From an uncultured Smithella sp. (GTDB taxonomy: Bacteria > Desulfobacterota > Syntrophia > Syntrophales > Smithellaceae): a stretch of 64,000 bases of DNA. Position numbers and translations under genes: made by a program. Location: positions 34,230 through 98,229 of the forward strand of contig CAYXZW010000002.1 of assembly GCA_964469905.1 (NCBI GenBank), given 5' to 3'. This document shows positions 1,858 to 64,000 of the stretch, in pieces. Under the pieces are notes generated by a model. That model did no database searches and was not told where the DNA came from. It worked only from the letters and a program-made list of their open reading frames with translations. The first letter of the stretch is position 1, and the number at the start of each line of letters is the position of its first letter.

Positions 1858-1882
1858 AATTTGCTTAAGAAATACGGGAAAA

Positions 1883-8647: not shown

Positions 8648-8648
8648 C

Positions 8649-30150: not shown

Positions 30151-31056
30151 TCATGGCAGCTTTCGCAACGTTGACACGAAAGCCCCTGTTTTTTTAAACA
30201 TCCTTTGGAACATACAAAAGGGAACAAAAGCCAATAGCAGATATTTATAGTACCATACGCGTCCATTCCGTCGGACACACTGAAACATCTTCTTCGTCTG
30301 CAAATAATTTTGGATAGACAGTGCCCAGTTATCTGTGCTCAGCAAGTAATTGGTTTTTATAACTTCAAAGCCGACTTTACTTGCCAAAATTTCAATCGCT
30401 GGAGGCGAAAATAAATAGAGATGCCTGGGAATGTGCAAACTTCCCCAATATTGCTGAAACAGGGAATGGTCCCAACTGTCAGTGTTGGGTGTTTCCAGCA
30501 ATATAAATCCACCAGGTTTGAGAATACGGTGGGCTTTTCTCAATTCTTCTATTGGATCAGTTACATGTTCAATCAAGTTATTCATAATTACAAGATCAAA
30601 GTATTCGACAACATCAATATCCTGCATAGTTCCTGTGATAATGTTACGCCCATTTTTTCTGCCTCTTTCCGCAATTTCATCATTAAATTCGACACCCGTC
30701 AATTCAAGATCGGGGTACTTCTTTTTAAGCAAATCAAAATAAGGCGCATCAGCGCAACCCACATCAATCATCTTCCCTCGTGTTCCGATCAAATTCTTAT
30801 ATTCGCTAAATCTGGATAAATAGACAAGGTGATAAAGAAGAGAAACGACACCTCGCTCGGAGGCATTATAACCATGATAATCTGGTGGATAGTATGTCAA
30901 TAATTCGTCGAGAGTGGGCATGGGGGAGAGCGCCATAATCCCGCACCTTTGACACCTTAAAAAAGAGAAATTGCCTTTGACATCATATTCCCTGTCAAAT
31001 AGATCCGTTAAGTCACATTCTAATTGCATCTCGTCACACAATATGCAGTTGGGCAT
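30151..31056 (-). CDS. Class I SAM-dependent methyltransferase with N-terminal zinc ribbon
   Basis: 301 aa; CILC...CQRCG ribbon, SAM motif I MIDVGCADAPY, VIMNNLIEHV, LKPGGFILLETPN; start overlaps the upstream stop (TAATG). Confidence 0.8.
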   Translation of the reverse strand: MPNCILCDEMQLECDLTDLFDREYDVKGNFSFLRCQRCGIMALSPMPTLDELLTYYPPDYHGYNASERGVVSLLYHLVYLSRFSEYKNLIGTRGKMIDVGCADAPYFDLLKKKYPDLELTGVEFNDEIAERGRKNGRNIITGTMQDIDVVEYFDLVIMNNLIEHVTDPIEELRKAHRILKPGGFILLETPNTDSWDHSLFQQYWGSLHIPRHLYLFSPPAIEILASKVGFEVIKTNYLLSTDNWALSIQNYLQTKKMFQCVRRNGRVWYYKYLLLAFVPFCMFQRMFKKTGAFVSTLRKLP

Positions 31057-32165
31057 TATTTCTTATCCATCAGGTATTCTCTAATAAAAGATTCAGACAT
31101 TGCTGGTAAACAATTTTGTATATTATTATTGCTGTAATAGGGATTTTTTAGCATTTCAGATTGAATTTTCTGTAAAGATTTTTCTCGAATATTACCATAA
31201 CTTATTTGAATAAGTGGACAGGAAACTATATCACCATATGGTTGTAATCCTATTTTCTCTCTTGCCGCGGGACACTTAATGACCGTCAGACTGGAATACA
31301 TATCAGTTCGGTTATTCCATGATTTTGAAAGCAACCAGAAAAAATACAGTTTCGCTTCTTCTGTTAACATCAAATCTATCCTATTTTTATTAGCTCCGGT
31401 TAAGCAGCAGGGGGTAATTTGAAGTAAACACCCCAATTTTTTTGCTAAATGAAAAGTATAGATGATGTCGTCTTTTTGTACTTTGGCATTGGTTAAAATT
31501 GTGTTTAAAGAAACGTGAATTTTATGTTTTTTACAATGATGAATATTTTCAAGGATTTTATTATAACCCCCTTTAACCCTATTTCTATCGTGTAAGTCTT
31601 CAAAAGCAGAGTCAAAGCCCATTTCAATTCCGTCCAAACCGCATTCTTTCAATTTTTCTATCTTGCTTTCTGTAAGCAATGTGCCGTTCGTACATAGCAT
31701 TACGAGGCGTCTGTGATACTTTTTGATATATTTCACCAACTCATATACGGTTTCTTCTTCCAGCATGGGTTCGCCGCCATTTAAAGAAAATTGAAAGGCT
31801 CCAAGTTCAACCGCCTGATCAACAGCATTCTTAAATTCATCAATAGTTAACTTCTCTTTCAATTCTTTATCTTTATTGAAAGCTAACCGGCAGGAGCACT
31901 GTTCACATGCCGAATTGCAGCGATAGGTGATGGCCAATTCCAAAGAGCGTAGGCATCCCCTTCCCTGAGTTGCCCTCAGAAAACCATTAATCACATAGCG
32001 CCATATAATCGGATATGACAGTATTATAATTATACTCTGAATTACTCGATTGAAAAAGATTCGATAAAAAATAAACCTCTGCAAGAATTTGCTTGATTTT
32101 ACACGTTCGAACTCTTCGTGAAATTTCTGTATCTTGACACTTGATATTATGTCATTCAGTTCCAT
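31056..32165 (-). CDS. Radical SAM protein with N-terminal TM helix and SPASM/twitch-like C-terminal Cys region
   Basis: 369 aa; CNSACEQC (CxxxCxxC) cluster motif, SLNGGEPML GGE motif, hydrophobic VIQSIIIILSYPIIWRYVINGF before the core, downstream Cys: ITPCC, IKCPAAREKIGLQPYGDIVSCP, NCLPAM. Confidence 0.8.
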   Translation of the reverse strand: MELNDIISSVKIQKFHEEFERVKSSKFLQRFIFYRIFFNRVIQSIIIILSYPIIWRYVINGFLRATQGRGCLRSLELAITYRCNSACEQCSCRLAFNKDKELKEKLTIDEFKNAVDQAVELGAFQFSLNGGEPMLEEETVYELVKYIKKYHRRLVMLCTNGTLLTESKIEKLKECGLDGIEMGFDSAFEDLHDRNRVKGGYNKILENIHHCKKHKIHVSLNTILTNAKVQKDDIIYTFHLAKKLGCLLQITPCCLTGANKNRIDLMLTEEAKLYFFWLLSKSWNNRTDMYSSLTVIKCPAAREKIGLQPYGDIVSCPLIQISYGNIREKSLQKIQSEMLKNPYYSNNNIQNCLPAMSESFIREYLMDKK

Positions 32166-32199: not shown

Positions 32200-34101
32200 T
32201 TAATTTACGTTGGTGAGGAAAGTCTTCTTCCATATCATGAAGACAAGAAGTCCCCAGATTTCGAAACCAAACGATTCTTTCCTCTTATAATGAAGATCAA
32301 GCATTTTTCGGACATTTTTCGCATGAAATATCCCTGATTCTCGAAGGGATTTTTCAGATAAGTATTCTTCTATTAAGTTAACAAGTTGATTTCTTGTCCA
32401 TTGATGAACAGGAATGCTAAACCCTTGTTTGGGACGGTTTGCCATATGAACTGGAAATTTCCTTGCCATATAACGCTTCAGAATATGCTTACTGGAAGTA
32501 AGATCCTTCAATTTTAATTCTGCCGGTAGTTTTAATGCCCATTCTACAATGCGATGGTCAAGCCACGGAGAACGAACCTCGAGACCATGGGCCATACTCA
32601 TGCGATCGACCTTGGCAAGGATGTCATTGGGGAGATACTCGCAACTATCTGCAATTTGGAGCGAAATCAGATCAGGATTATAATAATCAACATTGTGTTT
32701 TGATGACATATAGTTAAATGTATCATAAGAATCCGCAAGATTAGATAAAAAATCGTCCGACAACAAATTACCTTTGTCTTCTGAACACCAAGTGCCGTTC
32801 CATGAAAAATGGGCACATCCTGGGGGCATAAGAAGCCCGCGTGAAAACCGTTTCAATTTGTACTCTAATGATACTTTACTATCCGATATCGGTATATGAC
32901 TGACCAATGAGTTTGTCAATCGCAACATACTTAATGGAATATATTTTCTTATCATTTTTGCTAATAAAGTCGCCTGATAGGTTAAATATCCGGCAAAGGT
33001 TTCATCTCCTCCATCTCCCCCAAGGACTACTTTAACGCTCTTGGATGTATCCCGACTTAATAGATATACGGGAAGGGCCGAAGAGTCAGCTAATGGTTCA
33101 TCCGCATGATAAATTAAAGATGGTAAATTTTTCCCGACATCCGGGGTTATTTCAAAAACTTTAATCTCCATGTCGAGTGATTTGGCGATCTCCCTTGCAT
33201 ATTTTTCTTCATTAAAACTTTTTTCGCCAAAGCTTGCGGTAAAGGCAGATACATCCGCTCCAAGTTCCCTGGTCTTCCAAGCAACTAAAGACGAGTCCAC
33301 TCCACCGGAGAGAAAAATTCCAACTGGAACGTCACTTCTCAACCTTATTCTAACTGAATCTGATAAAAGACTGTCCAACTCGTCAATGGCTTCATCTTCA
33401 TTTCGCGGTGAGTTGTTGACGTTGTGAAATTCGCTGAAGCTCCAATAAATATTTCTACGAATCTTTTCCTTTGAAAAAACCATGGTGCTGCCAGGCATGA
33501 TGCGCTTTATGTTTTTCAGCATAGTTCTCTCAGTTGGGATATAATTGAGTGAGAGATAGTCATATAGCGCTGAACAATCTAATTCCCTTGGAACCGCAGG
33601 ATGCAGAATAATAGACTTAATTTCTGATGCAAAAACTACCCAATCCTGATCATTATAATAAAATAACGGTTTTTCACCAAAACGATCCCTTGCAAGAATA
33701 AGCTGTCGCTCCCGCAAGTCGGCAATAGCAATGGCATACATCCCATTCAGATGGGAAAACATTTCAGTTCCCTTTTCTTCATACAGATGCACGATGACTT
33801 CCGTATCTGATTTAGAACGAAAATGATGATTCCTCGCAAGCAATTCATCCTTTAATTCTAAATAATTATATATTTCGCCATTAAAAATGACAATGACAGA
33901 ACCATCCTCATTTGTCATTGGTTGAGAACCACCATCAATATCTATAATTGAAAGCCGCCTGTGTCCGAAGCCGAATACGTTACTATTATAAAATCCTTCA
34001 CCATCGGGGCCTCGGTGTTTGAGCGATAAGGCCATTGCCTTAATTAATTCCCCCTCAATGGGTTTATCGTTTTTAGAAAATATTCCCGCAATGCCGCACA
34101 T
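32200..34101 (-). CDS. Asparagine synthase (glutamine-hydrolysing)-family amidotransferase, copy 1
   Basis: 633 aa; N-terminal nucleophile MCGIAG, HRGPDGEG, PP-loop FLSGGVDSS. Confidence 0.85.
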   Translation of the reverse strand: MCGIAGIFSKNDKPIEGELIKAMALSLKHRGPDGEGFYNSNVFGFGHRRLSIIDIDGGSQPMTNEDGSVIVIFNGEIYNYLELKDELLARNHHFRSKSDTEVIVHLYEEKGTEMFSHLNGMYAIAIADLRERQLILARDRFGEKPLFYYNDQDWVVFASEIKSIILHPAVPRELDCSALYDYLSLNYIPTERTMLKNIKRIMPGSTMVFSKEKIRRNIYWSFSEFHNVNNSPRNEDEAIDELDSLLSDSVRIRLRSDVPVGIFLSGGVDSSLVAWKTRELGADVSAFTASFGEKSFNEEKYAREIAKSLDMEIKVFEITPDVGKNLPSLIYHADEPLADSSALPVYLLSRDTSKSVKVVLGGDGGDETFAGYLTYQATLLAKMIRKYIPLSMLRLTNSLVSHIPISDSKVSLEYKLKRFSRGLLMPPGCAHFSWNGTWCSEDKGNLLSDDFLSNLADSYDTFNYMSSKHNVDYYNPDLISLQIADSCEYLPNDILAKVDRMSMAHGLEVRSPWLDHRIVEWALKLPAELKLKDLTSSKHILKRYMARKFPVHMANRPKQGFSIPVHQWTRNQLVNLIEEYLSEKSLRESGIFHAKNVRKMLDLHYKRKESFGFEIWGLLVFMIWKKTFLTNVN

Positions 34102-34160: not shown

Positions 34161-35849
34161 TTACTTTTTTTCGACTAAGAAACTACCAATTGCTAATGCA
34201 TCCAATTTTGTCTTTAAAAAACAATTAATTGCCTGAAGAGGTGTGTTTATTAAAGGTTCATCTTTAATGTTAAAGGATGTATTGAGTACCACCGGATGTC
34301 CAGTCTTTTCACCAATGCTTTTAATTAAATCATAATAGATTCCGTTTTCTTCACGGGAAACAGTATGAACTCTCGATGTTCTATCCTGATGGATAACGGC
34401 AGGAAGTAGGTCTATCACTCCAGGTTTCGCCAAGTAGGTATGCGTCATATAAGGAGATGGTGTTTCGTCATTATAGAAATATTTTCCAACTTCATTGAGC
34501 AGAACAGAAGGGGCTAATGGCCTGAATAGCTCTCTATATTTTACTTTTTCATTAACTATCTTTTTCATTTCAGCGATTGATGGATTTGCCAATATACTCC
34601 TTGCTCCCAAGGCTCTTTGTCCATACTCTGTCCCCCCTTGAAACCACCCGACAATCTTACCCCTGGCAATTAATTCAGCCGTTCTTTCGATAATGGCTTC
34701 TTTGCAGTCTGTATAATCAATGTTAGATTGATCAAGTATCTTTCTTATTTCTTCAGTGTTGAATGAATTGCCTAATAAAGCATTTTTCAGTGCTGTACGT
34801 TTATATGACCCGGAACGTATGCTGGAAAGATAGCATGCTGCACCCAATGCACAACCCGCATCACTGGAAGCTGGTCCCAAATAAACATTGTTGGAAATTC
34901 CAGTTTGCATTATCTTCCCTATGGCTAGGCAATTCATCGCTACGCCCCCGGCTATGCACACATTTCTTATGCCTGTTAGTTTTATTGCTCTACTTACATA
35001 TGCAAGGATGCAATCTTCTATCCTTTTCTGGAGACTGGCTGCAAGATTTTTATCGCGCTCTGAAGGATCTATAAATACCTTATTCGATTTGCCAAATAGC
35101 TTTTCACATTTTTTGCTGAATAATGTTTTACTTCCATGGGGGTAGGAAAAATAACTCGTATCGATTTCAAACCTGCCATCATCGGATATGTGCATTATTT
35201 CCTTGAATTGATCATAATATACAGGTGCCCCATAGGCCGAAAGCCCCATCACTTTATATTGATCAGTATAATAACTAAAGCCCAAAAATTGTGTAAATGC
35301 TGAATACACTAAGCCAAGTGAGTGCGGCCACAAAGTTGATTCTATATGTTTAATATCCTTTCCCTTTCCATAACCAATCCAAGATGTCTCCCACTCACCA
35401 GCGCCATCAATACTAACTATTGTGGCATCTTGATAAGGCGAAATCATGAATGCACTTGCAGCATGACACAAATGATGAGGAATCAGACTGATCGCACCTT
35501 CATATTGGAGCTTTTCTCGTATTATCGTTTTTATGAAGTTGAATTTTGCAAACTTGAAAGATTTTCTCAATAAATCTGGGGCATGACATATGTTTCTTAT
35601 TCCGAAGATCATCCGTTCTTTTTGGTAAAGCTGTGGACAAAAATAATAACCTACCTCATCAACATCCCTTATTGTTATTCCAGCTTTTGCTAAGCAGAAA
35701 TGAATACTGTTTATCGGAAAAGACGAGTCAAATTTTATTCTTGTATATCTTTCTTCTTCTGCAGCGGCTACAACTTCGCCATGCTCATTAACGATTGCCG
35801 CAGCCGCATTGTATTCACCAAGACCTGCAATACCCAAATAGAACTTCAT
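34161..35849 (-). CDS. Carbamoyltransferase, NodU/CmcH family
   Basis: 562 aa; ASKHA-like N-terminus LGIAGLGEYNAAAAIV, HHLCHAASAF, YrdC/Kae1-like C-terminal part with VLNTSFNIKDEPLINTP. Confidence 0.8.
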   Translation of the reverse strand: MKFYLGIAGLGEYNAAAAIVNEHGEVVAAAEEERYTRIKFDSSFPINSIHFCLAKAGITIRDVDEVGYYFCPQLYQKERMIFGIRNICHAPDLLRKSFKFAKFNFIKTIIREKLQYEGAISLIPHHLCHAASAFMISPYQDATIVSIDGAGEWETSWIGYGKGKDIKHIESTLWPHSLGLVYSAFTQFLGFSYYTDQYKVMGLSAYGAPVYYDQFKEIMHISDDGRFEIDTSYFSYPHGSKTLFSKKCEKLFGKSNKVFIDPSERDKNLAASLQKRIEDCILAYVSRAIKLTGIRNVCIAGGVAMNCLAIGKIMQTGISNNVYLGPASSDAGCALGAACYLSSIRSGSYKRTALKNALLGNSFNTEEIRKILDQSNIDYTDCKEAIIERTAELIARGKIVGWFQGGTEYGQRALGARSILANPSIAEMKKIVNEKVKYRELFRPLAPSVLLNEVGKYFYNDETPSPYMTHTYLAKPGVIDLLPAVIHQDRTSRVHTVSREENGIYYDLIKSIGEKTGHPVVLNTSFNIKDEPLINTPLQAINCFLKTKLDALAIGSFLVEKK

Positions 35850-37711: not shown

Positions 37712-39352
37712 TTATTGCTTAATGATTTTTTTCATTACAGCATGAACTGACCACAAAATAAAATTGAATAAAACTTGATAAACCAGCAACCCGCAGAAAA
37801 GAACCAGAAACAACAAGCATGCACCGTAGGCAATATAGAACTGCGGATAAATTATCAGGGATTCGACCCAAAGCAATGCTCCTGCCATCGAAAGCGCCGT
37901 TAAACCAAAGGCAAAGGATTGGCCCATATTAAACTTCCGAAGAAGTCCTAAAATACCTACGGTGGCTGTAATAAAGAAGAATAACAACGTCGCATATCCG
38001 TGCGGTAGAATTTTCATCGGGAAAATAGCTGTTAAAAGAACTTTGTCGCTCATTGTGCCATCCAATGTGTTTCGATTAACATAGTTAATCACTTGATATC
38101 CAGTATATCTGAATTTAGAGATATATATATCTATCATTTCAGATGGATAAAATAGCCATAACTTTAAATAATAAAGAAACAGAGTTTTTTCATAAACAGG
38201 ATTATTCCTGATATCAACTTGGGGATCAAACCTCTTGGCAATTTCATGCCCTTTTTCATCTGACCAACTGATCCCCTCCCTTTCCGAGAGGGAATTTTCG
38301 GGAACAGATAATCCTAACACGATTGGATGCGCCCAAGAGTGATAACTAATGCCAACATAATTAGTCGCGGAATAATCAAGGTCATATATCGGTTTGAGAA
38401 ATATGCCTTTAAATAGTCCAACACCAACAATGAAGAATATCACGGCAGAAACGATCAAGACCGATTTATGCAAGCGAGAAATGTTGAGACGCTGACGCAA
38501 ATCATAAAAAACAAATAATAAATATAGTATGAAAACCGCAACAACTATAAAAAAATAATCGCTCCTGAGATTCCAGAAAAAAATGCCAAGAACTCCCATG
38601 AAAAGCATAAATAGAAAATTTGTCCAAATTTTGAGATAAGTCCTTATGCTGATGCTAATTCCCATCAGAGAAATAAACAACACGGTAAAAGGAACAAGAA
38701 AAGAATAGGCTGAATAGTGCTGCGAATATAATAGTTCAAAAAATCTCAGACCAATAAGGAATGCAATGCAGCCAAAAACCGGGCTCAAACCGACTCGAAA
38801 AAGAAAAAAAACAAAGACAGTCAGGCATGCTATTTTAATCCACGCGACGATAATACTCATTTGAGCAAGCGTAACGGTTGGATACAATCGAATTATTGTT
38901 TCAAAGAGCAGTGTAAGAGAATTTTCATTGTTCAGACAAGGTCGATTATTATGTGCACAATAGTTTGCAGTTGATCCGGCTATTATTTTTGGCAGATCAA
39001 GAATGCGATTTGATAAAATTGTGGTATTGTGTTTGAGAATGTTCGACAGGTTGTACTCTTCTCGATCAGGCAGATGGCTAATTCGATCGCAGGAAACACG
39101 ATTTATCGCCATTTGAAAACACCTAAAAGTATGGCCGAGTCCATCTAATGGAGCTACTTCTGCGGGCCGATAAAGACTTAGAACTGTTATGGAGCATATT
39201 AAAGTTAGAAAAAATGCATGACTCCATGACCTCTGCTCATTAACGCCAATTTTTGCTACGAATAAATAATCTAACAGAAATAAAATATAGGAAGGAAGAT
39301 TCGATAAGCTAGTGTGCTTTGAAAAAATATTTCTGGTTCCCCCAAATTTCAT
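37712..39352 (-). CDS. Polytopic integral membrane protein of unknown function (candidate GT-C-like glycosyltransferase or polymerase)
   Basis: About 546 aa from the ATG at 39352 (the listed TTG start is at 39376). At least 10 hydrophobic helices and two predicted extracytoplasmic segments (~residues 70-160 and ~340-430). No family motif recognised. ~30% G+C. Confidence 0.5.
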   Translation of the reverse strand: MKFGGTRNIFSKHTSLSNLPSYILFLLDYLFVAKIGVNEQRSWSHAFFLTLICSITVLSLYRPAEVAPLDGLGHTFRCFQMAINRVSCDRISHLPDREEYNLSNILKHNTTILSNRILDLPKIIAGSTANYCAHNNRPCLNNENSLTLLFETIIRLYPTVTLAQMSIIVAWIKIACLTVFVFFLFRVGLSPVFGCIAFLIGLRFFELLYSQHYSAYSFLVPFTVLFISLMGISISIRTYLKIWTNFLFMLFMGVLGIFFWNLRSDYFFIVVAVFILYLLFVFYDLRQRLNISRLHKSVLIVSAVIFFIVGVGLFKGIFLKPIYDLDYSATNYVGISYHSWAHPIVLGLSVPENSLSEREGISWSDEKGHEIAKRFDPQVDIRNNPVYEKTLFLYYLKLWLFYPSEMIDIYISKFRYTGYQVINYVNRNTLDGTMSDKVLLTAIFPMKILPHGYATLLFFFITATVGILGLLRKFNMGQSFAFGLTALSMAGALLWVESLIIYPQFYIAYGACLLFLVLFCGLLVYQVLFNFILWSVHAVMKKIIKQ

Positions 39353-39400
39353 ATCTGATCTTCTACCTCTAATCAAAACAACACTTGCTGTGCCTTATTC

Positions 39401-49963: not shown

Positions 49964-51871
49964 TTAATTTTTCAGCAGACCTTTAAAACGGTGGTCTTGA
50001 TCATGGAATTCCCGCTGCCATAATTCCAGGGAAAGCAGTCCCCATATCTTTCGTCCGAATTGTTGTTCTCCGTCGATTCCATCCAGAACGGCCCGGTTGT
50101 TGATCAGATCCCTGCTCAGGGCCTTTTGCGATGAAAAGATATCACGGATAAAATCACGGGACTCTCCCTTCATCCACTCCGTCAAGGGAACGGGAAACCC
50201 CATTTTGTCCTGTCTTTCCGTGATTACGGGCGGCAACAGTGATTGCATGGCCGTTTTCAAAACATGCTTCATCCTGCCGTTACTAAATTTAATATTCGCA
50301 GGAATCGTGGCGACAAGTTCCACAAGCGGGTGATCGAGAAAGGGAACCCTCGATTCCAAACCGTGAGCCATGCTAACGCGGTCCTCCACGTGGAGGAGAG
50401 CGGGCAGAAGGGTTTTGAAATCGAAATGCGTCATACTGTCGAAATAGGATTCCTTCTTTACATTGTCCGAATGGAAAATACTCGTAAACGTCTCGTATGG
50501 AGAATAGTCATTTAGATATTCCTGATGAATTTCTTTGCCATACATCGTTCCTCGGTTAATCAGACGGAAATACCGTCTGTCCATGTCTTCGAATAAACCT
50601 TCTCTCCAGAATTCCCGAAGCAGCGGCTTGTAATTTCTGAGAGCCGTCAGATTGGGAATGATCGATTCATACGTAACGATGTAGGACGCGCTGTGCATGG
50701 TTCCCTCAATCGCCCCTTTTATGCACTGCTCAAAATAAGCAATCAGGTAACGCACATAGCCACCGAAGATTTCGTCTCCACCTTGTCCTCCGAGGACTAC
50801 CTTGCGATACTTGCCGGCAAGCTTTGAAACCATGTACTGGGGGAATGAGCCGGGACCGGCTACAGGGTAATCGAGATGGTAGATGACCTTCGAGATATTC
50901 TCGATGAAATCCGTTGCCGAAATATCCAGTTCGTGCAGATGAAAACCGCACTTCTGAGCAATTTCCCGAGCGTAGCGGCTTTCGTCATACTCCTCGCTGA
51001 GCGAAAATTTCCCGGTGAATCCCATGTAGTCATCCGGCAAATCTGCAGAGGCAAGGGCGGCTATAATACTTGAATCCAGTCCACCGCTGATGTAGGCGCC
51101 TACGGGGACATCGCTCCTCATATGCAGGCGCACAGATTCGGCAAGCAGGGATCGGATGTCCTCTTCGAAGTCAGCAGCCGTTTTATCAAGATTCAGATTA
51201 TAATAGACCTGCCAGTACCGCTGGATGCGAATATGACCATTCCTGATTTCCAGGAAATGGCCAGGCGGGATTTCCCGGATGCCCCTGAACAGGGTCTTTC
51301 CATCCAGGCAAAATTGAAATGTAAGATAATCTTTGAAGGCTTCAATATCTGTGTCTATTCCTTCAACAAAAGGAAGTAGAGCTTTGACTTCCGATGAAAA
51401 GTAGAACGTATTGCCGACAATTGTGTAGTAGAAAGGCTTGATACCGAAACGATCGCGGGCACAGAAGAGCGTCCCGCCTGCTTCATCCCAGAGAGCAAAC
51501 GCGAACATGCCCCGGAAATGATCCAGGCAATTTACGCCCCACTTCCGGTAGGCGTGAAGAAGAACCTCAGTATCCGAGCGGGTCTTAAACGTTTCTATTC
51601 CGAGTTCATCGCGCAGTTCGATAAAATTATAAATTTCTCCGTTATAAGTAACCCAGTTGCGAGCCCCATCGCTCATCGGCTGTGCGCCTGTGTCTAGATC
51701 GATGATGCTCAACCGCCGGTGGGCGAAGCCGACGTGCCCGCGGGGATGAACCCAAATGCCCTCACCGTCCGGCCCACGATGTTTCTGCAACTCATTCATG
51801 ACGGCCAAGCGCCTGTTTAAATCGACGATTTTTTCGAGCGAAAGATTGAACGCGCCTGCGATTCCACACAT
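49964..51871 (-). CDS. Asparagine synthase (glutamine-hydrolysing)-family amidotransferase, copy 2
   Basis: 635 aa; MCGIAG nucleophile, HRGPDGEG, PP-loop YISGGLDSS. Confidence 0.85.
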   Translation of the reverse strand: MCGIAGAFNLSLEKIVDLNRRLAVMNELQKHRGPDGEGIWVHPRGHVGFAHRRLSIIDLDTGAQPMSDGARNWVTYNGEIYNFIELRDELGIETFKTRSDTEVLLHAYRKWGVNCLDHFRGMFAFALWDEAGGTLFCARDRFGIKPFYYTIVGNTFYFSSEVKALLPFVEGIDTDIEAFKDYLTFQFCLDGKTLFRGIREIPPGHFLEIRNGHIRIQRYWQVYYNLNLDKTAADFEEDIRSLLAESVRLHMRSDVPVGAYISGGLDSSIIAALASADLPDDYMGFTGKFSLSEEYDESRYAREIAQKCGFHLHELDISATDFIENISKVIYHLDYPVAGPGSFPQYMVSKLAGKYRKVVLGGQGGDEIFGGYVRYLIAYFEQCIKGAIEGTMHSASYIVTYESIIPNLTALRNYKPLLREFWREGLFEDMDRRYFRLINRGTMYGKEIHQEYLNDYSPYETFTSIFHSDNVKKESYFDSMTHFDFKTLLPALLHVEDRVSMAHGLESRVPFLDHPLVELVATIPANIKFSNGRMKHVLKTAMQSLLPPVITERQDKMGFPVPLTEWMKGESRDFIRDIFSSQKALSRDLINNRAVLDGIDGEQQFGRKIWGLLSLELWQREFHDQDHRFKGLLKN

Positions 51872-56447: not shown

Positions 56448-58025
56448 TTACCATGTGTCAAAAGTCATATGAATCCATCTTAAAATCTTCATCTCCGCAG
56501 TATAACGGAAATCCCTTTCAACCCACTTACGATAGGCCCGATGACCAGCCACACTTCTTACAAACTCCGGCATTTTAAGGAGAAGCAGACGAAAGAAAGT
56601 TTTCAGATTGTGATTTCGAAAGCCCCTGTTAACGCGACCAACAACATTCAATTGCCTATTCTCGCGGCCATATTTAGAACACAAACTGGCGGCTGCCATA
56701 TATTTCGCATCGGGGTGCCAGAGTGTGTGCGAAAGATCACCGATTCTGAAATCGCCCCAGGCTTTCAATGTAAGGGGAGGTTGGAATCCCGCCTTAACCA
56801 CTTCGTAATGCATGGGGGTCGCGGGGCAAGGTGCATAGAGGAAAATCCGGCCGATAAGCATTTTTTCCTGGTATTTTTCATTCAGGTAATCAATGAGGTC
56901 TATTGTCTTTTGCAGATCCTCTCTCGTTTCGCCGGGGAAACCCGTCATGAAATTTGTCCAGAATAATAGTCCGGCCCCGCAAATCTGTTCCGCTGCGTTA
57001 TGGATATCTTCAAGTGTGCAATCCTTCTTTATATAATCAAGAACTTCTTGCGATCCTGATTCTGCCCCCACATAAACTTCCGTCAGTCCCGCTTTTTTTG
57101 CCTTTTCCCAGAAGGCCTGGTCCGTCCTTCGGACATACTGGGCACGACAGGATGTGTGCCACTTGAGATCGAGATTCATTTCGATCAGCCCGTCCATGAT
57201 CGCCTGCGCCCGCTTGAGATCCGCGAAAAAGCAGTCATCAACAAAATGGATTTTATTCGGGTTGAACTTTTCTTTGAGAAATTTCATGTCTTTTAGTACT
57301 TGCTCAACACTTTTCTTGCGGAATTTTCTTCTGTGGACAATCAAAACATCACAGAAAGCGCAGCGATGTGGACAGCCTCGTTCCGATTGGTAGAGCAAAG
57401 TGTTTTTGATGTCGTAGTAATCCGTAGATATCAGATCATATGCAATAGGCAACTGTTCATCAAAATTCATGAAAGGACGATCGGGGTTATTAAGGATTTG
57501 TCCGTTCTTTTTCCAGGATATCCCTTGAATAGTTGACAGATCGGAGTTATCAGCCAGGGCATGTGCCAACTCAACACATGTTAGCTCTCCTTCGCCGCGA
57601 ACAATTATATCAACATACTCCGATGTCCGAAGTGATTGTTCCGGGGTCAGCGTCACGTGCACGCCACCCCACACAATAGGGAGATCAGGTCTGGTCTTCC
57701 GAACGATCTCCGCACAGTATAAACCGAATCGGATCATGCTGCCGGTCAGTGCCGTAATGCCTGCAAACACAGTGCGATCGTCGATTTCTTCGCGAATCCT
57801 TGTGCGGGCATCCTCAACTCGGCCATCGATGATCACCACTTCGAATCCCTCGCGGCGCAAGTAGGGGGCAATCGCAAGCAGGGAAAGAGGAAGTGTCATT
57901 CCCCTGCCAAACAGGTGGCCCAGGAAGTTTTGAACAAAATCAGCTTGTGCGAGGAAATCCGGGATCGATCCCCTTAGGTAGAAACCAATTTCACCGGGCA
58001 TAATTAGAACAATTTTATTTTTCAT
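56448..58025 (-). CDS. Class B (cobalamin-binding domain) radical SAM enzyme
   Basis: N-terminal B12-binding-like Rossmann (VVIIDGR...FAGITALTG...PIVWGGVHVT), cluster motif CPHRCAFC, GAESGSQEVL. ATG at 58025 is preferred over the listed TTG at 58049. Confidence 0.8.
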   Translation of the reverse strand: MKNKIVLIMPGEIGFYLRGSIPDFLAQADFVQNFLGHLFGRGMTLPLSLLAIAPYLRREGFEVVIIDGRVEDARTRIREEIDDRTVFAGITALTGSMIRFGLYCAEIVRKTRPDLPIVWGGVHVTLTPEQSLRTSEYVDIIVRGEGELTCVELAHALADNSDLSTIQGISWKKNGQILNNPDRPFMNFDEQLPIAYDLISTDYYDIKNTLLYQSERGCPHRCAFCDVLIVHRRKFRKKSVEQVLKDMKFLKEKFNPNKIHFVDDCFFADLKRAQAIMDGLIEMNLDLKWHTSCRAQYVRRTDQAFWEKAKKAGLTEVYVGAESGSQEVLDYIKKDCTLEDIHNAAEQICGAGLLFWTNFMTGFPGETREDLQKTIDLIDYLNEKYQEKMLIGRIFLYAPCPATPMHYEVVKAGFQPPLTLKAWGDFRIGDLSHTLWHPDAKYMAAASLCSKYGRENRQLNVVGRVNRGFRNHNLKTFFRLLLLKMPEFVRSVAGHRAYRKWVERDFRYTAEMKILRWIHMTFDTW

Positions 58026-58032
58026 CCTCACC

Positions 58033-59193
58033 TTAGCTGGCTCGATCAAATATTTCTTTTATTGATGCGATAATATATTCAACGGCTTCCTCCGCCAGAG
58101 AGGGATACAGGGGAAGGTTAATCCCCGATAAACCGAAACGGACGCAGTTTTCCAAATTCCCTACCTTTCGGACCTGCTGATAGGGGGGCATTAAATGAAC
58201 GGGGTAAAAAGTTGGCCTGACCTCGATGTTGTATTCCTTCAATTTAGAAATTAGGGCATCTCTATTCAAGAAGGAATCATTTTGTAGAAATGCGCAAAAA
58301 AGCCAGTCAATTTTCTTTCCATACGGACTTATTGAATAAGTTCGTAACCCATTAATACTATCAATTCCTTCATGATATAATTCGGCAAGTTCAGCACGGC
58401 GACTAAGGAATTCATTAATTTTCTCTAATTGTGCTACGCCTATTGCCGCATTAAGATTCGTAAGCCTGAAGTTAAAACCGATTTCATCATGCCAGTAGCG
58501 CCTTGCTTTGCTCATGCCGTGATCGCGGAGCTTTCTCATTCTTTTATCCAGCGTGCTGTCATTCGTGACGCAGAGACCTCCCTCGCCGGTTGTCATGACC
58601 TTGTTCCCGTAGAAGCTAAAACAGCCGATGTGCCCTATGGATCCGACCATTTTCCCCGCACATTCCGCGCCGTGGGCTTCGGCTGCATCTTCTATAACGA
58701 AGATATTGTGCTTCTCCGCAAGCCCCATGATGGATTTCATGTCGCACGGATGTCCATAAAGGTGAACCGGCATGATGGCTTTTGTTCTTGGAGTAATGGC
58801 CTTTTCGATTTCAGCCGGATCCATGTTCCAGTGATCAGGCAAGCAATCAACCAAGACGGGAGAGGCGCCTGCATGAAATATTGCATTCACTGACGCCGCA
58901 AATGTCAGAGACGGAACCACCACTTCATCACCCGGTCCTACATCAAGAGCTTTGAGCGCAAGTAGAAGTGCACATGTTCCATTGGATACACTCACTGCAT
59001 GCCGTATTACGAGATAGGATGCAAAATTCTCTTCAAACTGATTGATGTATTTACCGAGCGAGGATATCCACGTCGATCGAACAGCATCCAGAACATATTT
59101 CTCCTCATTGCCCTCAAAAACAATATTGGATATAGGGATCAGAGACATCCGTTTTTTTACCTGCGACCTTTTTTCTTTTGTAACAACATCCAT
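58033..59193 (-). CDS. DegT/DnrJ/EryC1/StrS-family PLP-dependent sugar aminotransferase
   Basis: 386 aa; VSNGTCALLLAL, VVPSLTFAASV, VIEDAAEAHG, PLP-lysine region FSFYGNKVMTTGEGG; the start could be the internal ATG at 59148. Confidence 0.85.
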   Translation of the reverse strand: MDVVTKEKRSQVKKRMSLIPISNIVFEGNEEKYVLDAVRSTWISSLGKYINQFEENFASYLVIRHAVSVSNGTCALLLALKALDVGPGDEVVVPSLTFAASVNAIFHAGASPVLVDCLPDHWNMDPAEIEKAITPRTKAIMPVHLYGHPCDMKSIMGLAEKHNIFVIEDAAEAHGAECAGKMVGSIGHIGCFSFYGNKVMTTGEGGLCVTNDSTLDKRMRKLRDHGMSKARRYWHDEIGFNFRLTNLNAAIGVAQLEKINEFLSRRAELAELYHEGIDSINGLRTYSISPYGKKIDWLFCAFLQNDSFLNRDALISKLKEYNIEVRPTFYPVHLMPPYQQVRKVGNLENCVRFGLSGINLPLYPSLAEEAVEYIIASIKEIFDRAS

Positions 59194-59195
59194 AG

Positions 59196-60587
59196 TTAAG
59201 CACCGAACATTTTTTCTTTTATAATGACAAAATTCTGAAGAACACCTGTTTTAATCCGCGCCAACTGGTTTATGATGAATACTTTAACAGTCAGAACGTC
59301 TTCTCCTTGAATCATCAAATCACCTTTAAGGGTACAATTCGAAATATGAAGAAAGACGGCAATCTGTATAAGGGCAAGACAAAACATAGCAACAAGAAAA
59401 GAAACGGCCGCACCTGCAATGCCAAAAGGAGGAATCATGAGCATTGCGACAACAACTTGAACGAGGAATGGTATAATTGGAATTTTAACCGACAGATCAA
59501 CCCGTCCTACACCTGCAAAATACTGGCTCAGGACACTTGCAGCGCTGGAGATGATTAATCCCGGCAGAAGTAACCAGAAGGGAACGACCATCGGAAGGTA
59601 ATCACGGCCATACAGGATGTAGACGATAGGTTTGATCGCTACGAATGCCAACGCACCGAGTAATAAGAGTATCAATAATGCCACCCGAAAGGCACGGGCA
59701 ATAAGTTTGGCTGAGACCCCATCATTATCTGTTTTTGAAACTCTTGGAAAAAGAATGGTGTTCATGGCGTCAGGGATCTTATTCATCAGGACTCCTTTGT
59801 TAAGCGCCATGTTAAAAAATGCAACTTTTGCAGGGACAAGATAAAAGACAACAATAAGATTTGTTACATAAGAATTCAGAGAACTTATTAAGGTAGCGGC
59901 ATATATTTTGGAACCATAAGAAAATAAGTCTTTGACGAGAGGAAGATTGAATAAAGGTCCATTCCTCTTGACCCGTCCGAACGTTATGACACCATAAAGA
60001 AGACCCAGCAGCATCGATAAAAGAGAAGGGATAATAACGGCCAGCAGCCCCCATCTGAAAATAACAAGGAGCACAATGCTCAGCCCTGATGACACGAGGG
60101 CTTTGATGACAACCATTCTGTTATAATTCTTTACGTCTTCACGATAAAGGAGAAGATAGCTGTAATTCAGATACAGAAATTGAAGGGGAATCTGCAACAG
60201 CATGAAATATATAAACAGATGTACGTCCGCAGAGCTATTGCCAAAAAGAAGTCGATAACACCAGTCCAGATTAGCAAGGAAAAGACCGATGATCACGCCG
60301 CTTGTCAGGATAGCGATAAAGTTCAAGGTGAAAACGACATCACCGACATGATACTTTTTTTTCCCAAGAAAATAGACAGCCGCAATATCGAACTTTACTC
60401 TTCCAAAACCCTCTGCATACGCCGGTATCATCTGGAGGATGATCCACAAACCCAATACTGCCGGGCCCATCATACGGGCAATGATGACACCGGTTACAAG
60501 GTTTGTAAAAAAGAGAAATATGTCTCTTTTAAACAATGAAAAAGATTTCTCGGATAAGCTTTGCTGCTGTATTATTTCTTCTGTCAT
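59196..60587 (-). CDS. wzx: Wzx-type oligosaccharide flippase (MOP superfamily)
   Basis: 463 aa; ~12 TMs; N-terminal pattern KRDIFLFFTNLVTGVIIARMMGPAVLG typical of polysaccharide biosynthesis/flippase proteins. Confidence 0.75.
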   Translation of the reverse strand: MTEEIIQQQSLSEKSFSLFKRDIFLFFTNLVTGVIIARMMGPAVLGLWIILQMIPAYAEGFGRVKFDIAAVYFLGKKKYHVGDVVFTLNFIAILTSGVIIGLFLANLDWCYRLLFGNSSADVHLFIYFMLLQIPLQFLYLNYSYLLLYREDVKNYNRMVVIKALVSSGLSIVLLVIFRWGLLAVIIPSLLSMLLGLLYGVITFGRVKRNGPLFNLPLVKDLFSYGSKIYAATLISSLNSYVTNLIVVFYLVPAKVAFFNMALNKGVLMNKIPDAMNTILFPRVSKTDNDGVSAKLIARAFRVALLILLLLGALAFVAIKPIVYILYGRDYLPMVVPFWLLLPGLIISSAASVLSQYFAGVGRVDLSVKIPIIPFLVQVVVAMLMIPPFGIAGAAVSFLVAMFCLALIQIAVFLHISNCTLKGDLMIQGEDVLTVKVFIINQLARIKTGVLQNFVIIKEKMFGA

Positions 60588-60599
60588 TGGAAGGAGCGT

Positions 60600-62252
60600 C
60601 TACCAACCTTCGATAACTGTATTTTCAGGATTTAAAATACAATTACAGACATGATCCAGATATTTATTTTTACCCGGAGCGAGATCATCCAGTGAATTAA
60701 AGGAGAATCCATCGAACCGGCTATCATCATAAGCCTGCTTGGTCAAATTCCAGGGGATTGAAGTCTTCAAAAAATAAAAATACGCAAACAGTTCGATCAT
60801 CTCTTTATCAGCGTTCATGGGTTCGGCTTCACCCAGCAGAATTTTCCTGTATTCCATGATCGTTTGAGGCTCATAAGCGAGTCCCATGCCGCTGTATGGA
60901 GGCTGTGCCGCAACCAGAACGGGAATGCCCTGCAAAAGCATCTCCAAGCCGAGTGTGCCATAAAAAACCACGCCCAAATCTATATATTGAAAAAGATCGT
61001 AGGGCTTTATTTTTAACTCCGGCCTTATGATGGTTACATTTTCAGGCATCTTCGGATATTTCTCGCGGATAATGTCTTCTATCCCTTTCAAAGAAGAAAA
61101 CGAATCGTACTTTTCTCCCGGATGAGGTTTAATGTATAAGTGAATATTATCCTTATCCTTTATCATTTCAATAGTCTCAATTACCCATTCCGCAATGCCG
61201 GGAAATAAAACACCCAGTTCACCGATATCCCACAAAACGTTTGAAAACAGGAAGATATTCCTCTTATTCTCGTCAATGCTAATGATATCTCTGATATTCT
61301 CATTTCTCCCGAAATACCCAAATCCCTTAAACATGTCCGTTTCACCCTTGAATCTTGCATCGACAAGTTCTTTCAAGGTTTTTCGTTCTTTGTCATCAAG
61401 CTTATTATTGCCGCGGAACTGCACGTAACGAGAAAATCTGGATTGATCTTCATAAAGATCCATCATGTTGACCATGATACCGTAATAATCAACGGGCGTG
61501 ATGGAGATAGTTGTCAGCTGGACGCCATTTTTTTTAAAGAACCTGTAATACGGCTCAGCCACACTGTAGACATACATACTGTTCATTACGATATCAGGTT
61601 GATAAGTTTCATACAGTCGCTCAGCGATTTCTATGCCCATCATGGAGGTTGTCAAATGATTCTTTCTCACCTCCGCGAGGAGTGCTTCATCTGAAGTCAC
61701 AGATCCAAAAAAGAAGCGCTCAACAGAGGCATTCGTCATCGGAATTATATCGATGTCCTTGTATCTGTGTTGTGAGGGGTAGTTTTGAGAGATCGAAGCG
61801 GCTTTTCCTCTCAGTTCTTCCCTTTCGTCTGGCGATATAAAATCAGCCGGCTCGACGAGATTAAGACCAAATGACGGCAATACATGCTTAAGGTTAAAGC
61901 GGCAATTAAGACAAGGATCTTTCATCTTATAACTTCGTACATTCTTTGTTTCGCATCCATCCAGGTAAGAGTTGCATACGATAATCTTGATTTCGCCTCC
62001 CCTCATCTCCAGGGCTTTACACAGAACAAACATTTGATACATCTGGTAATGCTGCGTTTCATTTTGAATTAACAAGATTTTTTTTAATTTCGCCGTTGCT
62101 TTCCCGTTGGATTGAGGGCTGGCAAACTGGAGTTGTTTCTGTAATTTTCCTTTTAATTTAAAGTTATATTTCAACCATAACCTAAGCCACATGAGGGAAG
62201 GAAAGCGTAATAATATCGAAATCAAGAAAGTTTTAACAGATTTAATCATCAA
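60600..62252 (-). CDS. Hypothetical GT-B-like protein with a Cys4 motif; weak resemblance to capsule-synthesis (KpsS/KpsC-type) transferases
   Basis: 550 aa. N-terminal amphipathic/hydrophobic segment. Rossmann-like KILLIQ...IKIIVC followed by CNSYLDGC...CLNC. C-terminal half has IFLFSNVLWD, HLYIKPHPGE, VVFYGTLGLEMLLQGIPVLV. Confidence 0.35.
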   Translation of the reverse strand: MMIKSVKTFLISILLRFPSLMWLRLWLKYNFKLKGKLQKQLQFASPQSNGKATAKLKKILLIQNETQHYQMYQMFVLCKALEMRGGEIKIIVCNSYLDGCETKNVRSYKMKDPCLNCRFNLKHVLPSFGLNLVEPADFISPDEREELRGKAASISQNYPSQHRYKDIDIIPMTNASVERFFFGSVTSDEALLAEVRKNHLTTSMMGIEIAERLYETYQPDIVMNSMYVYSVAEPYYRFFKKNGVQLTTISITPVDYYGIMVNMMDLYEDQSRFSRYVQFRGNNKLDDKERKTLKELVDARFKGETDMFKGFGYFGRNENIRDIISIDENKRNIFLFSNVLWDIGELGVLFPGIAEWVIETIEMIKDKDNIHLYIKPHPGEKYDSFSSLKGIEDIIREKYPKMPENVTIIRPELKIKPYDLFQYIDLGVVFYGTLGLEMLLQGIPVLVAAQPPYSGMGLAYEPQTIMEYRKILLGEAEPMNADKEMIELFAYFYFLKTSIPWNLTKQAYDDSRFDGFSFNSLDDLAPGKNKYLDHVCNCILNPENTVIEGW

Positions 62253-62263
62253 TTTTTGTCCTA

Positions 62264-63664
62264 CTAATTATCGGCAGGGTTTTTTGACATACGATAGGTA
62301 GTTGTTTTAATCACATCACTATCATTTAAAGGGATATGGAGATCGTTTTTCAATCTGATCAGTTCTGCCGTAACAGTATCGATCAGTTCTTGATCGGACA
62401 TTTGCGTAAGGTTTACATGCAAATCCTGACGATCCCCAATCCGGAGCAGATATTCTTCTTCATCTCGGATCAACCCTTTTTCTTGTGCCATACGGTAAAT
62501 GGGTGTCCCCGGAAGAGGAAGAACAAACCCGGCGGAAGGATAAACGCCTGCCTGCCTGCAGATATCAAAGGTCATTCGAATGGTTTCTTTAGTTTCCTGA
62601 GGATAGCCGAATACAACTGATGTCAACGGTGATAGACCGGCCCTTTGAGCCGTATTCATCTGCTCAACAAATTCTTCGGGCTTCATGTGCTTGTTCATAG
62701 CGGCAAGTATTTCCTGTGATCCAGACTCCAGTGCGCCGCCTATAGTAAGAGCCCCCAGATCTTTACAACGTCTGAGTAAATCCAAATCTTTTTTTTGAAA
62801 GAGATTGCCTCTGGGATTAACTGACCAAAAAAAAGATATACCTTCCTTTTCGATAGCATTACAAAGTTCTACCGCTCTCTTTTTCGTGTTCAGGGTTAGT
62901 TCATCCCAAAAGGCCAGATAATTGGCTTTGCATTCTTTCTGAAGACAATTCATTCTATTGATGACTGCCTGAAAAGGATAATACCGGTATTTATCTCCCT
63001 TGAAGGCATGGGTGCAGAAGGTGCAGTCAAAAGGGCATCCCCTTGCCGTATTCAACGGAACGACTCTCATCTCGGCTTTCGGCAACGGAAAAGGTTCCGC
63101 AACCAGCATATACGAAACATCGAGATACTTATCAAAATCAAACATGGAATAATCCGGGAACGGGACATCTTCGATATTTGGAATGGCCTTACGTTTTCCG
63201 GTCACTATCACATTTCCTTTATAACGAAATGCAATTCCGGGAAGATCAGCCAGGGACTTTCCGGTTCTCAGGCAATCCGCAATATCGACAATCGTCCGGT
63301 CACCTTCGCCGATAACTGCTATATCAACCTCCGGAACACATGAAAGGAGGATGTTCGGCACTGCCGCAACCGTATTCCCAACGACTAGAACTGATTCCGG
63401 CAATACGCGCTTTACCTGTTGACAGAGTCTTTTAGTAATTTTATACGAGGAAACTATGTTGCCCAGGCCAATGATGTCATATTTATTTTTTGACAGAATC
63501 TTATCTATTTCATCGTCTGTATAACGATAAAGGTCTATATCCAGAATGTCCGGTTTATATCCTGCTTTGTCTAAAGCAGTGGCTATGCAGGCGAGACCGA
63601 CAGGGATAATCTTCACCGGACTCTCGGGACGGAGACATGGATTTATCAATAATATTCTTGTCAT
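62264..63664 (-). CDS. Class B (cobalamin-binding domain) radical SAM enzyme
   Basis: 466 aa; B12-binding-like N-domain (ILLINP...IIGLGNIVSS...VVGNTVAA), cluster motif CPFDCTFC, GALESGSQEIL. Confidence 0.8.
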   Translation of the reverse strand: MTRILLINPCLRPESPVKIIPVGLACIATALDKAGYKPDILDIDLYRYTDDEIDKILSKNKYDIIGLGNIVSSYKITKRLCQQVKRVLPESVLVVGNTVAAVPNILLSCVPEVDIAVIGEGDRTIVDIADCLRTGKSLADLPGIAFRYKGNVIVTGKRKAIPNIEDVPFPDYSMFDFDKYLDVSYMLVAEPFPLPKAEMRVVPLNTARGCPFDCTFCTHAFKGDKYRYYPFQAVINRMNCLQKECKANYLAFWDELTLNTKKRAVELCNAIEKEGISFFWSVNPRGNLFQKKDLDLLRRCKDLGALTIGGALESGSQEILAAMNKHMKPEEFVEQMNTAQRAGLSPLTSVVFGYPQETKETIRMTFDICRQAGVYPSAGFVLPLPGTPIYRMAQEKGLIRDEEEYLLRIGDRQDLHVNLTQMSDQELIDTVTAELIRLKNDLHIPLNDSDVIKTTTYRMSKNPADN

Positions 63665-64000
63665 TGATTAATACCTGCTGATTTGGATTTACGCCAGTTC
63701 CATTCCGGTTCAGAATCAATTACTGGGAATAGTTGATTGAACCTTCTCAAATAATCGTCAGATTCTGCCTGAGAAAACCATGGAACCCTTTTGGGGCTTC
63801 TGTTTGTGTCAATAAAAAATGGATCTTCGGCGTATTCTTCAAAACTTTTTGGCGCTTTGTAACCCTTCTCAATAGCCATCTGACAGAGCTTGGATCCCGG
63901 ATACGGGGTATAAAAACAGACTTGAAATTTTACTTTGGGGGTGATCTTTAAACACTCGTTCAGGAATTGTCTATTTTCTTCCAGATCTGTCAAGGGACCT
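63661..64000 (-). CDS. C-terminal part of a further radical SAM enzyme (class B-like C-terminal region); gene starts beyond the window
   Basis: The frame is open to the window edge (the listed start is an internal TTG). FQVCFYTPYPGSKLCQMAIEKGY parallels the F(V/M)xGxPG...Y segment of the neighbouring class B enzymes. The stop overlaps the next start (ATGA). Confidence 0.55.
   Translation of the reverse strand, partial: GPLTDLEENRQFLNECLKITPKVKFQVCFYTPYPGSKLCQMAIEKGYKAPKSFEEYAEDPFFIDTNRSPKRVPWFSQAESDDYLRRFNQLFPVIDSEPEWNWRKSKSAGINQ

Follow-up and report, generated by a model that had tools for sequence, protein, structure and literature searches.

The 64,000-nucleotide (nt) stretch of uncultured Smithella sp. 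DNA analyzed here (the window) ends in two overlapping genes for radical S-adenosylmethionine (SAM) enzymes with B12-type domains, for which we coined the names famA (the 455-amino-acid (aa) family) and famB (the 466-aa family). The two are probably different tailoring enzymes of a nonulosonic-acid module of the pseudaminic/legionaminic acid (Pse/Leg) type, within a lipopolysaccharide (LPS) O-antigen operon set. Their substrate class, as indicated by conserved gene neighborhoods, is most likely the nonulosonic acid or its N-acyl substituent. The pair has the following features:

62264..63664, minus strand: famB, complete gene for a 466-aa B12-domain radical SAM enzyme (Pfam matches, database homologues, AlphaFold model)
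63661..64000, minus strand: 3' end of famA, a B12-domain radical SAM gene of 455 aa in full, the remainder lying beyond the window edge
63661..63664, minus strand: ATGA start/stop overlap of famA and famB, read directly from the sequence

The initial annotation had described a complete 466-aa class B gene with an ATGA overlap, and translation, direct reading of the sequence, and Pfam all agree with it. The translation of the open reading frame (ORF) at 62264-63664 (minus strand) contains ARGCPFDCTFCTH, its cluster motif CPFDCTFC supplies Cys210/214/217, and the protein scores 49.5 bits against the B12-binding domain (PF02310; cut-off 32.1) and 61 bits against Radical_SAM (PF04055; cut-off 29.5). 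In the minus-strand sequence taatcaATGAcaag, the famB ATG (63664-63662) and the famA TGA (63663-63661) share 4 nt, an arrangement typical of translational coupling; famA and famB are co-transcribed and translationally coupled.

The visible part of famA comprises 112 sense codons plus the stop and contains FQVCFYTPYPGSKLCQMAIEKGY. Taken alone, this fragment has no Pfam or NCBIfam match and returned nothing from a search of a 5.8-billion-protein database; against famB it gives a weak match, correctly placed at residues 361-397. In the database, famB has a 100% match in P0001 and an 88% relative in P0002. The latter is encoded on a 3.9-kb contig (L001), an 88-91% relative, on which a 455-aa gene at 360-1727, with B12-binding and Radical_SAM domains and the motif CPGNCTFC, overlaps the famB orthologue at 1724-3118 by 4 nt. 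The C-terminus of this 455-aa protein is 95% identical to the visible famA fragment, and a search with it found P0124, also of 455 aa, with precomputed PF02310 and PF04055 matches and the motif CPGNCTFC. The longest contig recorded for P0124 measures 156,285 bp, the same length as for P0001. Because the last 112 residues of P0124 are identical to the window's partial ORF, P0124 can be identified from sequence as the full-length product of the truncated famA gene; the famA profile (A2) scores 156 bits on the window fragment. The earlier proposal that the partial ORF is a class B-type enzyme was to fall if the full-length protein proved not to be a radical SAM enzyme; P0124, which has both PF04055 and the cluster motif, and the orthologous pair in L001 instead confirm it.

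Gene neighborhoods in other genomes connect both families with nonulosonic acids. A genome scan with a single protein as query found nothing, and an alignment-based rescan of species-representative genomes yielded 80 loci. Every ORF of all loci was scored with marker proteins (NeuB, CTP_transf_3, PseG, PseH, and Cj1295-like, within 10 kb) and with two family profiles. Among the famB orthologue loci with at least 5 kb of flank (n = 25), 19 have at least one marker and 15 have NeuB or CTP_transf_3, in contrast to 5 and 5 for the distant B12 radical SAM loci from the same scan (n = 41); Fisher p values are 2.2e-7 for any marker and 7e-5 for NeuB/CTP_transf_3. For famA, a marker was found in 6 of the 8 metagenome loci with some flank, and in further loci examined individually. 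Genes for NeuB/cytidine monophosphate (CMP)-sugar synthetase or a Cj1295-like protein lie near famA in L004, L005/L006, L088, L090, L091, L093, L095, L097, L106, and L108. Examples of gene order in loci of the two families are:

L004 (both famA and famB in one Pse-type cluster): CTP_transf_3, GNAT (PseH-like), famA, NeuB, ATP-grasp, RraA-like, radical SAM (rSAM)/SPASM, famB, Amidohydro_2, Glyco_tran_28_C (PseG-like), PIG-L
L005/L006: CTP_transf_3/Aminotran_3, GNAT, GT2, NeuB, SDR, TylF, carbamoyltransferase, Cj1295-like, famA
L106: ACPS, RraA, NicX, AMP-binding, PP-binding, Antibiotic_NAT, aminotransferase, Cj1295-like, famA, NeuB
L108: CTP_transf_3, aminotransferase, NeuB, ATP-grasp, famA
L107: full PseB/PseC ... 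PseF, PseG, PseH, NeuB (PseI) set, then formyltransferase, PIG-L, famB, and a homologue of the 550-aa protein encoded next to famB in the window

Orthologues of famB occur in Methanoregula, Syntrophaceae, Desulfovibrio, Dehalococcoidales, Omnitrophota, Paceibacterota, Nitrospirota, and others, nearly all of them metagenome-assembled genomes (MAGs). Loci of these families often contain an acyl-carrier N-acylation cassette, made up of an adenosine monophosphate (AMP) ligase, an acyl carrier protein (ACP), a phosphopantetheinyl transferase, and an AAC(3)-like N-acyltransferase. In several clusters small ACPs adjoin the AAC(3)-like N-acyltransferases and AMP-ligases, and famA is often found beside an ACP. 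The loci around famB orthologues (L008, L016, L017, L020, L021, L023, L027, L028, L034, L037, and L107) often contain two or three B12 radical SAM genes that are only distantly related to one another. Most of these loci have nonulosonic-acid markers, and such multi-enzyme tailoring seems to be a recurring theme rather than a peculiarity of this window. A conserved module of famB with an rSAM/SPASM gene was ruled out, the SPASM enzymes of L002 and L004 being only 26% identical.

Archaeal famB orthologues in Methanoregula MAG loci (L002/L007 and L003/L008) are 63-66% identical to the window's famB; their neighbors are ACPs, an AAC(3)-like N-acyltransferase, an AMP-ligase, an HMGL-like enzyme, a phosphopantetheinyl transferase, and Cj1295-like proteins. 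Because this degree of identity links a methanogen with a probable Smithellaceae bacterium, it suggests that famB may have been transferred between domains. In an Alphaproteobacteria MAG (L078:9944-11537) and a Nitrospirae MAG (L036:9992-11381), famB is split across frames beside NeuB/CTP_transf_3, as either a pseudogene or an assembly frameshift.

Just upstream of famA in L001 is a gene fragment whose match is to Cj1295-like proteins, in their C-terminal (HTH_47) part. Since a Cj1295-like gene is followed by famA in both L001 and L106, one is expected just beyond nt 64000, and the locus almost certainly continues past the window edge, as had been suggested earlier. Members of the Cj1295 family (DUF4910/DUF2172/HTH_47) flank famA or famB in L001, L003, L005, L010, L011, L031, L093, L095, and L106. 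Cj1295 is required for N5-(2,3-di-O-methylglyceroyl) pseudaminic acid, was proposed by its authors to remove the N5-acetyl group, and belongs to a family that co-occurs with sialic acid synthases (PMC3068675). The resemblance to the flagellin N-acyl remodelling genes of Campylobacter jejuni lies in these Cj1295-family genes beside famA/famB. The Campylobacter module differs in that the literature covered describes none of its genes as a B12 radical SAM gene, and its sugar is placed on flagellin, whereas that of the window would be placed on O-antigen. C. jejuni Cj1300 was considered as a possible radical SAM enzyme and rejected, being regarded in the literature as a methyltransferase of the UbiG type.

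The window encodes one more enzyme of this architecture:

56448..58049, minus strand: third B12-domain radical SAM enzyme, motif CPHRCAFC (PF02310 63.7 bits, PF04055 75.1 bits)

Its start may be the TTG at 58049 (533 aa) or the ATG at 58025 (525 aa) chosen in the initial annotation, whose count of three class B-type enzymes in 8 kb is correct: the span is 7.6 kb, with PF02310 and PF04055 in each. All three proteins have the CxxxCxxC motif and PF04055 core of radical SAM enzymes together with the class B architecture (N-terminal Rossmann-type PF02310 plus radical SAM core), and the radical SAM cysteines are invariant in family alignments A1 and A2. Pairwise identity is 24% for each of famA/famB, famA/533-aa, and famB/533-aa, and hidden Markov model (HMM) scores are 60-190 bits across families versus 750-820 bits within them. 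By these sequence comparisons, famA, famB, and the 533-aa protein are distant members of one superfamily that belong to separate families. The famB family is large (>1000 homologues); that of famA is small, with some two dozen members sharing ≥36% identity among 5.8 billion clusters. For the 533-aa enzyme there were no orthologues among the fetched loci; it falls below all NCBIfam cut-offs, and its nearest solved structures are MgmA, TokK, OxsB, and CysS. Recent tandem paralogy, of the kind expected for an iterative methylase set, was ruled out by the 24% identity and the low HMM cross-scores, and the earlier model of iterative methylation by paralogues does not follow from proteins so dissimilar (~24%) and with separate family distributions.

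AlphaFold models built from the family alignments have high predicted confidence (pLDDT 90.6 for famB and 90.5 for famA), and Foldseek matched both models to TsrM, MgmA, OxsB, AprD4, CysS, and TokK with template-modeling (TM) scores of 0.6-0.72. TokK (7kdx), CysS (9n1b), MgmA (9ccb), and TsrM (6wte) are class B C-methyltransferases that share with famA and famB the N-terminal Rossmann B12-type domain and the CxxxCxxC core; their Foldseek TM scores are 0.64-0.72, and the profile alignments with TokK and TsrM span both domains. TokK and CysS act on pantetheine-tethered substrates, which may be compared with the ACP genes beside famA. However, the four are only 14-18% identical to famA and famB, and at 575-680 aa they have large C-terminal domains that are missing from the 455-466 aa proteins; the nonulosonic-acid clusters also differ from their pathways, and cobalamin use is a prediction here. 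In profile comparisons the famB N-terminal domain can be aligned to the cobalamin-binding domains of OxsB, TokK, and TsrM, whereas famA gave only partial alignments to TokK and OxsB. Sequence and predicted fold together confirm a class B fold, but a methylase and an AprD4-like dehydratase cannot be told apart by them.

Downstream of famB, the genes leading to the third radical SAM gene are:

60600..62252, minus strand: KpsS/KpsC-like glycosyltransferase, 550 aa (weak PF05159 and GT52 matches; family profile)
59196..60587, minus strand: Wzx-type flippase (PF13440, PF01943)
58033..59193, minus strand: DegT-family aminotransferase, nearest LegC/PseC (PF01041, 2.5e-126)

The junctions are a 4-nt overlap (famA/famB), 11 nt (famB/550-aa gene), 12 nt (550-aa gene/Wzx), 2 nt (Wzx/DegT), and either an overlap (TTG start) or 7 nt (ATG start) between DegT and the 533-aa radical SAM gene; the spacing is that of an operon-like chain from famA to the third radical SAM gene. 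A promoter and terminator scan of 55-64 kb gave counts equal to shuffled expectation and no internal terminator signal. This tight packing with a glycosyltransferase, a flippase, and an aminotransferase supports the earlier view that the pair belongs to the glycan locus and not to a neighboring pathway.

KpsC/KpsS-type enzymes use CMP-activated ulosonic acids as donors, and the 550-aa protein is a candidate transferase for such an acid, here a nonulosonic acid. It scores 18 bits against PF05159 (Capsule_synth), just under the 20-bit cut-off, and 46 of 60 aligned members of its family (~3700 homologues among cluster representatives) match this domain, the best at 1e-10; the family profile also matches the beta-Kdo transferase KpsC (6mgb, E = 3.7e-7). 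In L001, L017 (Paceibacterota), and L107, the gene directly after famB encodes a homologue. The KpsS homologue KpsS1 (GT118) is a proven pseudaminyltransferase (PMC12887879). The 550-aa family resembles KpsS1 and the beta-Kdo enzymes KpsC/KpsS (GT107) through PF05159 and its matches to the KpsC structure, and KpsS1 shows that this fold is able to transfer Pse. Unlike KpsC/KpsS, the 550-aa family has a conserved Cys-rich N-terminal part (C92, C99, C113, and C116, three of them invariant and one nearly so), which could be a metal-binding site undescribed for those enzymes. The DegT protein scores 354 bits against LegC (cut-off 420) and 300 bits against PseC (cut-off 423.5), below both NCBIfam cut-offs. 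Adjoining B12 radical SAM and DegT genes are also present in Dehalococcoidia and Planctomycetes loci (L066, L067, and L072).

The wider window divides into two parts. On the plus strand, 1-17.6 kb encodes LolC/E-like and LolD-like proteins, BamA, Skp, LpxD, LpxA, a GnnA/GnnB-like pair, LpxB, an MsbA-like transporter, and heptosyltransferases. The GnnA/GnnB-like pair (7700-9773, plus strand), a GFO/IDH/MocA oxidoreductase and a DegT aminotransferase between lpxA and lpxB, suggests lipid A built on 2,3-diamino-2,3-dideoxyglucose. At 90% identity, LpxA and neighboring proteins cluster with those of Smithellaceae and "Deltaproteobacteria" MAGs, in line with a probable Smithellaceae syntroph as the source. 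On the minus strand, 17.8-64 kb is one long glycan cluster with a PglF/PseB-like dehydratase, Bac_transf, many GT1/GT2 glycosyltransferases, Wzy_C, and Wzx. It also holds two AsnB-like enzymes, a carbamoyltransferase, a TylC3-type C-methyltransferase, several SAM methyltransferases, short-chain dehydrogenase/reductase (SDR) family dehydratases/epimerases, and DegT aminotransferases. This is an LPS O-antigen region, and the radical SAM pair stands at the 5' end of its ~46-kb operon set. The two AsnB-like glutamine amidotransferases and the carbamoyltransferase (49964-51871, 32200-34101, and 34161-35849, minus strand) suggest that the O-unit contains sugars with amide and carbamoyl groups. The cluster also holds a fourth radical SAM gene (31056-32165, minus strand; 369 aa, PF04055 and Fer4_12, no B12 domain), which is flanked by an AsnB-like amidotransferase and a SAM methyltransferase and is only weakly similar (48 bits) to the rSAM/SPASM genes of nonulosonic-acid loci. 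A 554-aa ORF in the middle of the cluster (37712-39376, minus strand) has no Pfam or NCBIfam match.

In the pathway we propose, each enzyme of the pair would cleave SAM reductively to form a 5'-deoxyadenosyl radical, which would abstract hydrogen from an unactivated carbon of either the nine-carbon sugar or an acyl/aminoacyl group bound for the N5/N7 amine. A methyl group from methylcobalamin would then be transferred. The pair would most likely carry out two distinct, non-iterative C-methylations, at different positions or on different intermediates of the nonulosonic acid or its N-acyl/aminoacyl substituent. The N-acyl substituent is an attractive target because ACP, AMP-ligase, and N-acyltransferase cassettes recur in these loci. 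The Cj1295-like protein encoded just upstream may strip the default N-acetyl group and so permit re-acylation. The KpsS-like transferase would then attach the modified CMP-sugar to the O-unit, with Wzx as the flippase.

Several findings weigh against assigning the pair to cobalamin-dependent tailoring of nonulosonic acids. Neither NeuB nor a CMP-sugar synthetase is encoded within the 64-kb window, so the nonulosonic link in this genome depends on sequence beyond nt 64000, and the core genes must be upstream or elsewhere. In favor of the assignment, accessory genes typical of such clusters do adjoin the pair: the KpsS/KpsC-like gene and the LegC/PseC-like DegT gene (below cut-off), with the Cj1295-like gene upstream in L001. 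The window's two Epimerase_2 genes are of the non-hydrolysing WecB type. Six of the 25 famB orthologue loci have no marker within 10 kb, and famA and famB are in tandem only in the window and in its close relative L001, being apart or alone elsewhere. NCBIfam places famB below every equivalog cut-off (HpnJ, BchE, rSAM_ladder_B12, PhpK, MgmA (TIGR04014), HpnR, and BzaD). Finally, the best solved-structure sequence match for both families is AprD4 (6fd2; E = 2e-21 and 2e-17 by profile). AprD4 is a non-methylating radical SAM diol dehydratase that has the same architecture and does not use cobalamin, so the architecture alone is no proof of cobalamin use.

One or both enzymes might therefore act on a nonulosonic-acid substrate by non-methylating radical chemistry, such as AprD4-like 1,2-diol dehydration (deoxygenation), epimerization, or rearrangement of the sugar or side chain, with an N-terminal domain that makes no use of cobalamin. 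We consider this unlikely, even though AprD4 (apramycin 1,2-diol dehydratase) resembles famA and famB in its length (457 aa), its amino-sugar substrate, and its overall fold (TM ~0.7, among the top Foldseek matches), and although BchE, OxsB, and HpnJ are B12-domain radical SAM enzymes that are not simple methylases. Similarity to AprD4 does not extend beyond the radical SAM core (~residues 195-400), and the NCBIfam AprD4 model (NF033070) gives famB 71 bits against a cut-off of 500, over residues 195-406 only. AprD4 also works with a partner reductase, and no AprD3-like gene adjoins the pair in the window. Because the famB N-terminal domain aligns with genuine cobalamin-binding domains and the AprD4 match covers only the core, C-methylation is the most likely chemistry for the pair, with AprD4-type dehydration as its main rival.

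The initial annotation proposed a multiply C-methylated or alkylated sugar, or action on a lipid carrier. On this reading the enzymes would C-methylate or alkylate, possibly iteratively, an ordinary hexose or 6-deoxy-amino sugar nucleotide of the O-unit, or act on a lipid carrier, and would have nothing to do with nonulosonic acids. The lack of NeuB in the window fits this proposal, as does the cluster's wealth of SDR dehydratases/epimerases and DegT aminotransferases with a TylC3-type C-methyltransferase, and GenK is an example of a class B enzyme that methylates the sugars of aminoglycosides. It is nevertheless improbable: in different phyla and domains, both families show a strong and specific association with genes for NeuB, CMP-synthetase, PseG/H, and Cj1295-like proteins, the ~24% identity excludes iterative duplicates, and the gene directly downstream encodes a candidate ulosonic-acid transferase of the KpsS/KpsC type. 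The proposed glycan role thus stands, while the conserved neighborhoods point to a nonulosonic acid in place of a generic hexose or lipid carrier. Far less credible is an unrelated pathway that merely borders the glycan locus, whether for hopanoids (HpnJ), ladderane-type lipids, BchE-like tetrapyrroles, or the maturation of ribosomally synthesized and post-translationally modified peptides. The best NCBIfam matches of famB do carry such names, but HpnJ (136 bits, cut-off 577.6), rSAM_ladder_B12 (131, cut-off 360), and BchE (130, cut-off 481) all score far under their thresholds, as does MgmA (77, cut-off 360). The names HpnJ, BchE, ladderane-type lipid enzyme, PhpK, MgmA, and AprD4 were dropped for this reason. 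The pair is also packed into an operon with glycan genes, and its neighbors elsewhere are sugar genes, with no hopanoid, tetrapyrrole, or precursor-peptide genes seen among them.

Class B-type radical SAM tailoring of sugars is known from aminoglycoside pathways (GenK and relatives, AprD4), and, to our knowledge, the diversity of nonulosonic acids described so far comes from N- and O-substituents added by conventional enzymes. No paper in the open-access literature searched ties radical SAM enzymes to nonulosonic, pseudaminic, or legionaminic acids; the enzyme kind is already known, and nonulosonic acids would plausibly be a new substrate class for it. A more tentative proposal, which we put forward as possible, is that famA and famB are two dedicated cobalamin-dependent families that install C-methyl or alkyl groups on a Pse/Leg-type sugar or its N-acyl/aminoacyl substituent, giving chemically undescribed nonulosonic acids on the O-antigens and surface glycans of strict anaerobes. 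If true, such sugars would be carried by syntrophs, sulfate reducers, Dehalococcoidia, candidate-phyla bacteria, and methanogenic archaea. Pseudaminic and legionaminic acids shape immune recognition, phage attachment, and motility. For annotation, a context-based role replaces the misleading names "anaerobic Mg-protoporphyrin cyclase" and "YgiQ," and two orphan class B families gain a defined candidate substrate class, a specific and testable assignment to nonulosonic-acid tailoring in anaerobes. That two radical SAM families track NeuB clusters in both bacteria and archaea points to an unexplored, carbon-level layer of nonulosonic-acid tailoring.

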